From positions 17,981-81,980 of the forward strand of contig DAOTGG010000001.1 of the NCBI GenBank assembly GCA_035446985.1: DNA of 64,000 nt, written 5' to 3'. The notes beneath the pieces are model-generated. The model did not search any database, was not told the DNA's origin, and worked only from the letters and a program-made list of their open reading frames with translations. The translations under genes and the position numbers were made by a program. Below are positions 35,361 to 38,517 of this stretch, in pieces (position 1 is the stretch's first letter; each line of letters opens with the position of its first letter). The stretch comes from Eubacteriales bacterium (GTDB lineage Bacteria; Bacillota; Clostridia; Christensenellales; CAG-314).

Positions 35361-36398
35361 ATGAAAACGAAAGAAATAAAAATAGGAAATATTAGTATTG
35401 GCGGCGGCAATAAAATAGCCATACAGTCTATGACAAACACGCCGACAACGGACGTTGACGCTACTTGCGAGCAGATTTCGCGGCTAATTAACGCTGGCTG
35501 CGATATAGTAAGAGTCGCCGCGCCGAACGCGCAAGCCGCTCGCGCTATTAAACAGATAAAGAATTTTTGCACGATACCGCTTGTCGCGGACATTCATTTC
35601 GATTACAAACTCGCGGTTACGGCTATAGAAAACGGCGCGGACAAAATACGCATTAACCCTGGCAATGTGCCTATTAAAGGTCTGGACGAGATTATTGACT
35701 GCGCAAAAAGTCATAAAATAGCTATTAGACTTGGCGTAAACAGCGGTTCCGCAGATAAAAATTTGCTGGAAAAATATAAAGACAAAAATCTTGCCTTAGT
35801 TGAAAGTTTGCTCTCGTACGTCGATTATTTTGAGAAAAAAGGCTTTTACGACATTGTGCTTTCGATAAAATCTTCCAACGTGCGTGAAACGGTGGAACTT
35901 AACAAGCTTATCTCGTCAAAGCGCGATTATCCGCTTCATATAGGGCTTACCGAAGCGGGCGTACCCGAAGTCGGTATCGTAAAAAACAGCGTTGCGATTG
36001 CGGAACTACTGTCGCAGGGCATAGGCGATACGATAAGGGTATCCCTAACCGCCGATCCTGTAAAAGAAGTTTTTGTCGCGAAAGAAATTTTGCGAAGTCT
36101 AGGACAAAAAGTTAACGGCGTGGAATTCGTGTCATGCCCAAAATGCGGAAGATGCGTAATCAACTTGGAAGAAATAGCGTCGGTCGTTTACGACCACGTT
36201 AAAAATATTAATAAGAATATAAAAGTCGCCGTTATGGGCTGCGAAGTCAACGGTCCCGGCGAATGCGCCGATGCGGACATTGGTCTTGCGGGCGGCAAGA
36301 AAATTTCATTTTTCAAACACGGCAAAATTTATAAAACGGTGGAGCAGGAAAACGCCGTGGAAGAATTTTTGAAAGAAATAGACGGTATTACGAAATGA
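35361..36398 (+). CDS. ispG: 4-hydroxy-3-methylbut-2-en-1-yl diphosphate synthase
   Basis: 345 aa. IQSMTNT, RINPGN, VSCPKCGRC, MGCEVNGPGE. Confidence 0.95.
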   Translation: MKTKEIKIGNISIGGGNKIAIQSMTNTPTTDVDATCEQISRLINAGCDIVRVAAPNAQAARAIKQIKNFCTIPLVADIHFDYKLAVTAIENGADKIRINPGNVPIKGLDEIIDCAKSHKIAIRLGVNSGSADKNLLEKYKDKNLALVESLLSYVDYFEKKGFYDIVLSIKSSNVRETVELNKLISSKRDYPLHIGLTEAGVPEVGIVKNSVAIAELLSQGIGDTIRVSLTADPVKEVFVAKEILRSLGQKVNGVEFVSCPKCGRCVINLEEIASVVYDHVKNINKNIKVAVMGCEVNGPGECADADIGLAGGKKISFFKHGKIYKTVEQENAVEEFLKEIDGITK

Positions 36399-37948
36399 TT
36401 TTAGAAACCTTAATAAAACTCGATACAAAATACAAGGATTTGCGGTTGCGAAAAACGGTATTTAACCAGCGCAAACGTACCGTTGAGTACGTTTTTTCTT
36501 TTCCCGCGCCGATGTCGGCTGTGGAAAAGGAGGACGTCAACAAGACCGCCCGCGCGTTATCTCCACACGGACTTAACGTGGAAACGAGTTTTGAAGTTGA
36601 TAATTTTGACGCAAACTCGATTAAAGACGAAATTTTGAGTTACGTTTCAAAAACTTTTCCTTCATTGTCTTACCGCAGCGAATTTGTCGTCAATTGTATA
36701 GACGACGGAGAAAAAACTGTAAAAGCCAATTTTTGCGCCGACGAGCTTACTTGCAAGGTAATAGAACAAAACGAACTCGTTGTTCTTTTGCAAAAATATT
36801 TTGAGTCTGTAACAACGACAAAAGTTTTTTTTGATATAACGACCGTGACAAAAGAAATCGACACCGAAACTTTGCTGCAAAAAGTCGAGGCGTATCAATC
36901 CCGTGAAATAGAAATTCAACTATCAAAACCAAAACGATTTTTCACCGTCACAGATACGATTCAGCTAATCGGCAAAAGCATCGACTCGACTGCGCGTTAC
37001 ATATCCGACGTTACCGCCCCAGTCAAAAACTGCGTAATTTGCGGTGCGGTCTGCAATAAAAAATGTTATCCGACCAAAAATCCAGACCTCGCAGTATGCA
37101 AAATAGATTTAGCCGACAAAACCGGTAAATTCCCGATTGTATTCTTTGCGGGTAAAGACGCTCGAAAAAAATACGAGCTAATTTCCGACGGCGACGAACT
37201 CATTGTTTCGGGTCCCGTCAGTATAAATAATTACAGCGGTCAGCTGGAATTAAAGGCTTACAATATTTCAAAGTGCAATATCATCGAAGAGCCTGAACAA
37301 GCGCTCGTAAGACCAGAGCCGCCCGAATACATAACAGTTTTCCCGCAAAAAATCTATTACGCCGAGCAGTTAAACCTTTTGTTTGCAAAGAGCCGAGAAA
37401 AGGGTTTTTTGGACGGAAAAGACGTGGTGGTGTTCGATTTGGAAACGACAGGTCTCAAATTTTTGCAGGACAAAATAATCGAAATCGGCGCGATAAAAAT
37501 CCGCGACGGACAAATAATAGAATCTTTTTCCACGTTTATCGACCCCGAAACGGAAATACCGAGCGAAAGCACCGCAATCAATAATATAACTGATGAAATG
37601 GTGTTAGGTCAGCCGATTTTTTCCGCCGTCGTGGGAGATTTTTACAAATTTACCCGAAACAGCGTGATAGTGGCGCACAACTTGGAATTTGATTATGGTT
37701 TTTTGAAATACAACGCCGCGTTCAGCGGTTACGATTTTGATAACGAGCGTTACGATACGATAGAGCTTATGCGTAAACTTATCACAGGCGGCAAATACAT
37801 AGGCAAAAAACCCGTAAATTACAAACTTGCCACAGTAGCGAAATCGCTAGGACTTGATATTGGAAACCTGCACCGCGCGCTTGACGACGCTCTTTTGACT
37901 GCCCGCGCGCTCCTAAAAATGTTTGACCATGATCCCAATTTGATATAA
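36395..37948 (+). CDS. PolC-like protein: N-terminal region + OB fold + DEDDh 3'-5' exonuclease, without PHP or polymerase core
   Basis: 517 aa. OB-like segment (VICGAVCNKK...CKIDLADKTGKFPIVFF...ELIVSGPVSINNYSGQLEL) and exonuclease motifs VVVFDLETTGL, IIEIGAIKI, VAHNLEFDYGFL, HRALDDALLTARALLKM resemble those of PolC. It sits between ispG and rimP, where Firmicutes carry polC. Confidence 0.8.
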   Translation: MILETLIKLDTKYKDLRLRKTVFNQRKRTVEYVFSFPAPMSAVEKEDVNKTARALSPHGLNVETSFEVDNFDANSIKDEILSYVSKTFPSLSYRSEFVVNCIDDGEKTVKANFCADELTCKVIEQNELVVLLQKYFESVTTTKVFFDITTVTKEIDTETLLQKVEAYQSREIEIQLSKPKRFFTVTDTIQLIGKSIDSTARYISDVTAPVKNCVICGAVCNKKCYPTKNPDLAVCKIDLADKTGKFPIVFFAGKDARKKYELISDGDELIVSGPVSINNYSGQLELKAYNISKCNIIEEPEQALVRPEPPEYITVFPQKIYYAEQLNLLFAKSREKGFLDGKDVVVFDLETTGLKFLQDKIIEIGAIKIRDGQIIESFSTFIDPETEIPSESTAINNITDEMVLGQPIFSAVVGDFYKFTRNSVIVAHNLEFDYGFLKYNAAFSGYDFDNERYDTIELMRKLITGGKYIGKKPVNYKLATVAKSLGLDIGNLHRALDDALLTARALLKMFDHDPNLI

Positions 37949-37952
37949 ACGC

Positions 37953-37980
37953 TTGCATTTTTTTGGCAATTGTGATAATA
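37953..37980 (+). promoter_or_regulatory. Candidate sigma-A promoter for rimP-nusA-infB operon
   Basis: TTGCAT at 37953-37958. TGtGATAAT at 37971-37979 gives a 15-nt spacer; overlapping ATAATA and TAATAT give 16-18 nt. Register is ambiguous. Confidence 0.35.
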
Positions 37981-38058
37981 TCAAGATACTTAAAGTACTT
38001 TTCTTACCGAGAGTGGGTTTTGCCCGCTCTCAACTTATTGTAAGGAGGTAAATGTAAT

Positions 38059-38517
38059 TTGAGTAAAGTCACAGAGATGGTATACAATTTAGCGAAACCT
38101 ATTGCGGACGAGTTTGGTCTTGAGCTTGTGGAAGTTAATTACGAAAAAAAACACGACGGTATGAATTTGACTTTGGTTATAGACAAAGAAGGCGGAGTGG
38201 ATATTAACGACTGCGAAAAGCTTCACAGGGCTATCGACGAACCGCTAGACCAGCTTAATCCTACCGACGATCATCCGTATATACTTAACGTTTCGTCGCC
38301 GGGACTGGATAGACCGCTAACTAAAACTAGAGATTTTGAAAAAAATATAAATAAAACTATCATCGTAAAACTGTACGCGCCTATTAACGGCAAGAAAACG
38401 TACACGGGTACGCTTGTTTCATTTGACGAAACCGTCTTTACGATTGACGTTTCGGGCGAAAAAGTCACGTTCGACAGGGCGAAGACCGCCAGCGTAGTTC
38501 CTTTTATAAAATTTTAG
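38059..38517 (+). CDS. rimP: Ribosome maturation factor RimP
   Basis: 152 aa. TTG start 10 nt after the AAGGAGG RBS (alternative in-frame ATG at 38076). LVEVNYEK...LTLVIDK...SSPGLDRPL motifs. Confidence 0.85.
   Translation: MSKVTEMVYNLAKPIADEFGLELVEVNYEKKHDGMNLTLVIDKEGGVDINDCEKLHRAIDEPLDQLNPTDDHPYILNVSSPGLDRPLTKTRDFEKNINKTIIVKLYAPINGKKTYTGTLVSFDETVFTIDVSGEKVTFDRAKTASVVPFIKF

Follow-up and report, generated by a model that had tools for sequence, protein, structure and literature searches.

A polymerase-less PolC derivative in the polC slot of a large PolC-less clade of Clostridia

The window analysed here is a stretch of 64,000 nucleotides (nt) from the assembly GCA_035446985.1 of an uncultured Eubacteriales bacterium of the gut type (contig DAOTGG010000001.1, positions 17,981 to 81,980), which belongs to the order Christensenellales of the Clostridia. 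Between ispG and rimP, in the slot where sister lineages carry a polC gene for 1,400-1,470 amino acids (aa), the window has an intact open reading frame (ORF) of only 517 aa (36395..37948, + strand, with ATG start and stop codon included). This gene, which we call the PolC relic, is the positional orthologue of polC. Its product is a polymerase-less PolC derivative composed of a PolC-type N-terminal domain, an OB fold, a linker and a DEDDh exonuclease, while the PHP domain, the polymerase core and the C-terminus of PolC were removed by a single event in an ancestor within this clostridial order. The whole clade that carries the short gene lost the PolC polymerase and keeps only DnaE. The relic is real, old and conserved and marks this large PolC-less clade; its identity and evolutionary history are well supported.

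Domain architecture and origin from PolC

The first 185 residues of the protein (36395..36949, +) form a PolC-type N-terminal domain with two alpha/beta subdomains, supported by NCBIfam, hhalign and the secondary structure of an AlphaFold2 (AF2) model. The OB fold follows at residues ~186-298 (36950..37288, +); its Pfam core (PF01336, E 8e-7) lies at residues 215-291, and the same profile is matched by 64 of 69 family members. A linker (residues 299-342; 37289..37420, +) then stands in place of the N-terminal half of the PolC PHP domain and leads to the DEDDh 3'-5' exonuclease (residues 343-512; 37421..37930, +), where Pfam places RNase_T at residues 345-505 (E 1.8e-34) and where D348, E350, D433, H493 and D498 are the catalytic residues. 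All four exonuclease motifs are found in the translation (VVVFDLETTGL, IIEIGAIKI, VAHNLEFDYGFL and HRALDDA). No PHP domain was detected in the 517-aa ORF by Pfam or NCBIfam, and Pfam finds no polymerase domain in it, the Pol III alpha core with palm, thumb and fingers (PF07733) included. The chain ends ~8 residues past the last exonuclease helix, a distance that varies from 5 to 15 residues across the family. A C-terminal 'DPNLI' peptide was considered as a conserved motif and rejected, as it is confined to the closest relatives and not conserved across the family.

The initial annotation, made from the sequence alone, had described this gene as a possible free-standing module of PolC N-terminal region, OB-like segment (about residues 200-290) and proofreading exonuclease, which could have arisen from polC by domain loss and is not followed by a PHP or polymerase domain. 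It also quoted the four motifs and expected a domain search to return only the PolC N-terminal, OB and RNase_T/DnaQ domains. Pfam, NCBIfam and hhalign agree with this description, and domain matches, alignment and synteny bear out the derivation from polC. What had been overlooked is a clamp-type motif in the linker, which is treated together with the function of the protein.

The best NCBIfam model for the relic is the PolC model NF001688, of which the exonuclease covers positions 418-586. In a six-frame search of the genome the N-terminal 300 residues matched positions 22-331 of the PolC model with an E-value of 2.4e-9. The score of the whole protein is below the PolC cut-offs (170.2 versus 873 bits for NF001688 and 138.6 versus 1043 bits for TIGR01405). 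When family residues 1-185 were aligned with the N-terminal regions of sister PolCs, hhalign returned a probability of 97% (E 1e-10, 136 columns), and PF11490 (PolC N-terminus II) is matched by two out of 69 family members; the PolC-specific N-terminal similarity proposed earlier is thus present. The nearest PDB chains are the PolC exonuclease of Thermotoga (2p1j, E 3e-28) and the PolC of E. faecium (9qpc). The latter is also the top PDB match found by Foldseek (389 columns, E 2.4e-19) for the AF2 model, which was built from 69 homologues and has a mean predicted local distance difference test (pLDDT) score of 91.5. The relic was also aligned residue by residue with three full-length PolCs from its own order, which it matches in N-terminal domain, OB fold and exonuclease. 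In PolC the inserted exonuclease splits the PHP domain, and the N-terminal half of this domain (R-V-E-L-H-x-H-T ... T-D-H-G) is replaced in the relic by the linker of ~45 residues.

The genomic position leads to the same origin. According to Pfam the gene order is cdsA-dxr-rseP-ispG-ORF-rimP-nusA-ylxR-infB-rbfA, in which ispG (GcpE; 35361..36398, +) as upstream and rimP (38059..38517, +) as downstream neighbour mark the polC slot. Relatives with the full-length gene have the order rseP-ispG-polC-rimP-nusA, those with the short form rseP-ispG-short-rimP-nusA.

A tree of the exonuclease domain (167 columns) is a polytomy, but places the relic among the PolC-type exonucleases and apart from three of four small stand-alone exonucleases with 98/90 support. 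The fourth of these, from a Spirochaetia metagenome-assembled genome (MAG), falls inside the PolC-type group. Of the phylogenetic comparison with PolC and DnaQ that had been proposed, the grouping with PolC-type exonucleases was therefore obtained; the exonuclease alone cannot order short and full-length forms, and a tree of flanking markers was used for this instead. That the relic is an ordinary DnaQ-family exonuclease without PolC ancestry we rejected as having next to no likelihood, because, although its exonuclease passes the generic dnaq subfamily model TIGR00573 (113.7 versus a cut-off of 71.5 bits) and the exonuclease-only tree is poorly resolved, its N-terminal domain and OB fold match PolC, its top NCBIfam and Foldseek matches are PolC, its position is that of polC, and the 98/90 grouping joins it with PolC exonucleases.

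Loss of the PolC polymerase and history of the short form

The assembly to which the window belongs (1.29 Mb, 102 contigs, 89% complete) has DnaE as its sole Pol III alpha. A tblastn search with two full PolCs against this assembly finds only the relic and DnaE, and DnaE is also the only PF07733 match in the genome. The dnaE gene itself is broken over the ends of the contigs C95 (3-1667, -) and C36 (9733-10686, -), and the assembly lacks residues ~581-876. On C95 a whiA-like gene precedes dnaE. None of 25 sampled genomes of the same family, many of them 94-97% complete, has a match to the PolC model above the cut-off. Such a match is also missing in several sister families, whereas the other families of the order have one. 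Searching in six frames with PF07733 revealed exactly one Pol III alpha homologue in each of 20 short-form genomes from 15 families, in all cases a DnaE of 1,160-1,290 aa, while all four full-length controls have both DnaE and PolC. The initial annotation had assumed that a full-length polC would lie elsewhere, but neither this genome nor the clade has a PolC polymerase, and DnaE alone was kept.

Among 200 genomes of the order with a completeness of 90% or more, the short form (open frames of ~500-580 aa) was found in the families which we label f1 (the family of the window), f8, f11, f13, f16, f17, f19 and f20 and further in f22, f23, f28, f30, f32, f34, f35 and f38. A diverged short form is present in family f25. 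In total at least 17 of the 39 families of the order have a short gene in the same slot, and several of the short-form assemblies consist of 8 to 30 contigs with a completeness of 99-100%. Among 400 genomes sampled across the class all short-form matches fall in this order, of which Maliibacterium massiliense is a full-length member. In public annotations the proteins of this family are called 'exonuclease domain-containing protein' or '3'-5' exonuclease'.

In a maximum-likelihood tree of RseP, IspG, RimP and NusA (1,192 columns) a single branch with 100/100 support splits 25 short-form from 18 full-length genomes. Therefore one change suffices to explain the distribution. Short-form proteins of different families are only ~30% identical, so the relic must be old. 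The ratio of non-synonymous to synonymous substitution (dN/dS) is 0.03 over residues 1-272 in comparison to a 98%-identical relative. In comparison to an 82%-identical relative synonymous sites are saturated, and the proportion of non-synonymous differences (pN) of the relic, 0.11, is similar to that of ispG (0.093) and rimP (0.087). Residues 1-340 searched against 1.84 billion representative proteins gave 158 clusters at 50% identity, nearly all of 480-570 aa. The relic is inherited under purifying selection in at least 17 GTDB-level families. In a fragmented MAG of 102 contigs and 89% completeness, whose own DnaE is split over two contigs, one might suspect an assembly deletion, as considered in the initial annotation, a pseudogene of recent age or a split polC of which the N-terminal half lies here and the polymerase half elsewhere. 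All three were rejected as extremely improbable, given that dozens of genomes, assembled independently and spread over at least 17 families, have an ORF of 500-580 aa with identical architecture and synteny in this slot, that six-frame searches count a single Pol III alpha homologue per genome, that selection is purifying and that the ORF ends 5-15 residues past the last exonuclease helix family-wide.

Some short-form genomes differ in the surrounding block. In family f32 (L041, L046), which has the smallest genomes of the clade (0.8-1.2 Mb), ispG and dxr are absent from the block and the relic lies directly between rseP and rimP, which suggests a loss of the methylerythritol phosphate pathway. 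At the locus L087 (genome G048, f25) the relic, ispG, rseP and dxr are all missing upstream of rimP, and another contig of G048 has a 450-aa open frame with a match to PolC-type exonucleases (C10:171861-172388).

In the window the stop codon of ispG and the start codon of the relic share an ATGA overlap, noticed already in the first description (36395..36398, +, reading 'acgaaATGAttt'), which suggests translational coupling of the two genes. The stop codon TAA of the relic is at 37946-37948 and rimP starts with TTG at 38059; the spacer between them (37949..38058, +) measures 110 nt, as had been stated. Of the promoter-like sequence that was also reported there, TTGCAT (37953-37958) and TGtGATAAT (37971-37979) are present with a spacing of 15 nt, but match the consensus weakly, and a promoter scan picks other hexamers instead (TTGGCA-16-GATACT, 37963-37990). 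A GC-rich 10-bp hairpin without a T-tract (38009-38031) lies between the promoter-like hexamers and the ribosome-binding site of rimP.

Catalytic residues, candidate clamp-binding motif and possible function

D348, E350, D433, H493 and D498 are invariant in all 117 close family members. The linker between OB fold and exonuclease is otherwise variable, but it has two conserved elements: Y312-x2-V-x-P317 and, eight residues on, a candidate beta-clamp-binding motif (QLNLLF, residues 325-330; 37367..37384, +). Its family consensus is Q-x-[N/D/G/S]-[L/M/F]-[F/L/M], with Q325 in 117 of 117 proteins and, equally without exception, L/M/F/I/V at position +3 and F/L/M at position +4. Q325 does not vary in alignment A2 of the family either. 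Over a wider set the motif is present at the aligned columns in 238 of 258 members with intact catalytic residues; counts were made by column, since scoring by regular expression gave false negatives, the OB fold containing the anchor motif as well. The linker motif appears to be a canonical beta-clamp-binding pentapeptide, the consensus of which is QL[S/D]LF. In sister PolCs a motif of the type Q-x-[S/T/D/C]-[L/F]-[F/L] is present within the last 12 residues (20 out of 20), and most DnaEs examined have an internal Q[F/L/M]S[L/M/F]F near residue 920-960. The deletion took the C-terminal clamp motif of PolC itself, and a new candidate motif, as judged from sequence, is fixed in the linker.

We lean, with slightly better than even confidence, towards the view that the relic acts as a clamp-tethered accessory 3'-5' exonuclease in trans for a replisome which has only DnaE1. 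Because all five catalytic residues are kept, the protein would be an active 3'-5' exonuclease. It would be recruited to the replication fork by binding of QLNLLF in the linker to DnaN, possibly with additional recruitment through the N-terminal domain, which is tau-domain-V-like. The OB fold would bind single-stranded DNA (ssDNA), and at the fork the exonuclease would trim mispaired or stalled 3' ends of DnaE1 in trans, as a second proofreader beside the PHP exonuclease of DnaE1 itself. The epsilon subunit of E. coli trims 3' ends for its polymerase in trans. For B. subtilis it was shown that errors of DnaE are removed by the exonuclease of PolC acting in trans (PMC5627055). The N-terminal domain of PolC is predicted to resemble domain V of tau and was proposed to contact the clamp loader (PMC3919608).

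Several points weigh against this view. The PHP nonad of DnaE1 (HHDHEHCDH) is complete in 15 of 15 genomes from both clades and DnaE1 probably proofreads by itself; with this site intact the exonuclease of the relic is possibly redundant. The relic has no epsilon-like C-terminal tail for the PHP domain of a polymerase. The match to clamp motifs is one of sequence, and ~20 of the 258 catalytically intact members are without a canonical motif at the aligned columns. Furthermore, ~26 of 284 family sequences (~9%) have lost the DEDDh residues and yet keep a full-length ORF in the same slot. Catalysis is therefore dispensable in some lineages, and these dead forms may argue for a structural role of the N-terminal domain and OB fold.

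The dead forms include family f25 and genera within f1, and their number means that catalysis was lost more than once. In lineages without the catalytic residues the last position of the clamp motif degenerates too, which favours the clamp-tethered exonuclease; the Y-x2-V-x-P motif of the linker is kept even there. In f25 a ~500-aa protein occupies the ispG-rimP slot (L086:2613-4127(-), L088:2590-4089(-), L089:2623-4107(-) and L090:2745-4289(-)), which retains the N-terminal domain, the OB fold and an exonuclease-like fold while all DEDDh residues and the clamp-type motif are gone; the flank-marker tree places f25 inside the short-form clade. In the family of the window itself, the protein at L030:2907-4562(-) (genome G013) has HNFNS in place of DEDHD and sits on a very long branch (3.16) in the exonuclease tree. 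A dead proofreading domain was also seen in a full-length sister PolC of 1,416 aa (L051:2576-6823(+), genome G027, family f4), in which the exonuclease residues are degenerate (SRSTE). Elsewhere in the genome of the window (G000) a second DEDD-type exonuclease, unrelated to the relic, with 324 aa and a long C-terminal extension, is encoded at L004:1507-2481(+) on contig C75.

More specifically, the relic could be a true subunit of the replisome, an epsilon-like proofreader derived from PolC, which re-acquired a clamp motif at a new place once the polymerase had been deleted. It would dock on the clamp and use its tau-domain-V-like N-terminal domain to reach DnaE1 or the clamp loader. We regard this version as possible but tentative, with somewhat less than an even chance of being right. 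If true, it would provide a snapshot of an integrated proofreading domain on its way to a separate subunit, and of a replisome with PolC and DnaE1 on its way to one with a single polymerase; the descendants with a dead exonuclease would reveal the structural role of the docking module itself.

The main rival to a clamp-tethered exonuclease is a mainly non-catalytic replisome scaffold, for example a bridge between clamp loader, ssDNA, clamp or DnaE, in which the N-terminal domain, OB fold and linker are under essential selection and the exonuclease is optional. The persistence of full-length ORFs with dead exonuclease in the slot (f25 and part of f1), the strong purifying selection on the N-terminal domain and OB fold (dN/dS 0.03) and the Y-x2-V-x-P motif retained in the dead forms would fit such a scaffold. 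We nevertheless consider it unlikely, as the five catalytic residues are strictly kept in the protein of the window and in ~90% of the family (117 of 117 in the close set), and the exonuclease is the best-conserved part among the catalytically intact members. To our knowledge no role has been assigned to the N-terminal domain and OB fold of PolC in isolation, which we also count against the scaffold.

Just as unlikely in our opinion is a general DNA-repair or 3'-end-processing exonuclease, which would use its OB fold on ssDNA, have no specific link to a replicative polymerase and owe its location merely to inheritance from polC. Many stand-alone DEDDh exonucleases have accessory DNA-binding domains; examples in the list of PDB matches are the N-terminal domain of DinG and ExoX. 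The neighbours ispG, rimP and nusA are uninformative on function, because the synteny was inherited from polC. Against a repair enzyme stand the invariant clamp-binding-type motif in the linker, the retention of the PolC-specific N-terminal domain, for which we know of no role in repair, and the fact that the origin of the relic coincides with the loss of the PolC polymerase.

Comparison with known systems and significance

Compared with full-length PolC the relic occupies the same slot, and its N-terminal domain, OB fold and DEDDh exonuclease follow one another as they do there, with every catalytic residue of the exonuclease present. It differs in that PHP, palm, thumb, fingers, the HhH motif and the C-terminal clamp motif are gone, that its clamp-type motif is in the linker between OB fold and exonuclease, and that it cannot polymerise DNA. 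With DnaQ/epsilon of E. coli (TIGR01406; 1J53, 5FKV) it shares the organisation as a free-standing DEDDh exonuclease of the proofreading type alongside DnaE1, with a clamp-type motif next to the exonuclease domain. The relic, however, arose independently from PolC, is twice the size and has an extra N-terminal domain and OB fold. Its motif is upstream of the exonuclease domain, that of epsilon downstream. A C-terminal tail for the PHP domain of alpha is lacking, and the family shares no conserved C-terminal motif; in addition, the PHP site of DnaE1 is intact in this clade, while the PHP domain of E. coli alpha is inactive. The relic scores below the cut-off of the dnaQ_proteo equivalog model (81.6 versus 222.7 bits).

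Trans-proofreading in B. subtilis (Paschalis et al. 2017, PMC5627055) is similar in that the exonuclease domain of PolC corrects the unfused DnaE, which for the relic is a proposal. There, however, the exonuclease is part of a working PolC, and the DnaE3 of B. subtilis is without a proofreader of its own. Timinskas et al. 2014 (PMC3919608) reported Clostridia with DnaE1 only as well as clostridial PolCs that lack the exonuclease, a separable module in this class. Their survey discarded fragments without the polymerase active site, and no relic of N-terminal domain, OB fold and exonuclease was described for the DnaE1-only Clostridia. A bacterial polymerase survey of 2026 (PMC12926913) does not mention a PolC relic. 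Our full-text literature search found no description of a PolC relic without polymerase and nothing relevant on the loss or absence of PolC, and the relic apparently is undescribed in print.

In the Bacillota PolC is viewed as the defining replicase and as essential. Nevertheless, the clostridial clade described here, which is large, diverse and for the most part associated with the gut, deleted the PolC polymerase once and has since then relied on DnaE1 alone. This supports the proposal of Timinskas et al. that clostridial DnaE1 replicates the genome by itself (PMC3919608). As a practical consequence, antibiotics directed at PolC, for example ibezapolstat (PMC12592400), have no target in the commensals of this clade, and surveys which score PolC by matches to its exonuclease or N-terminal domain would miscall short-form genomes. 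From the relic one can also see that N-terminal domain, OB fold and exonuclease are the parts of PolC which remain useful when the polymerase is gone. The relocated candidate clamp motif gives a concrete handle on trans-proofreading and on what the N-terminal domain of PolC does, and the family as a whole may serve as a worked example of how an integrated proofreader becomes a separate subunit.

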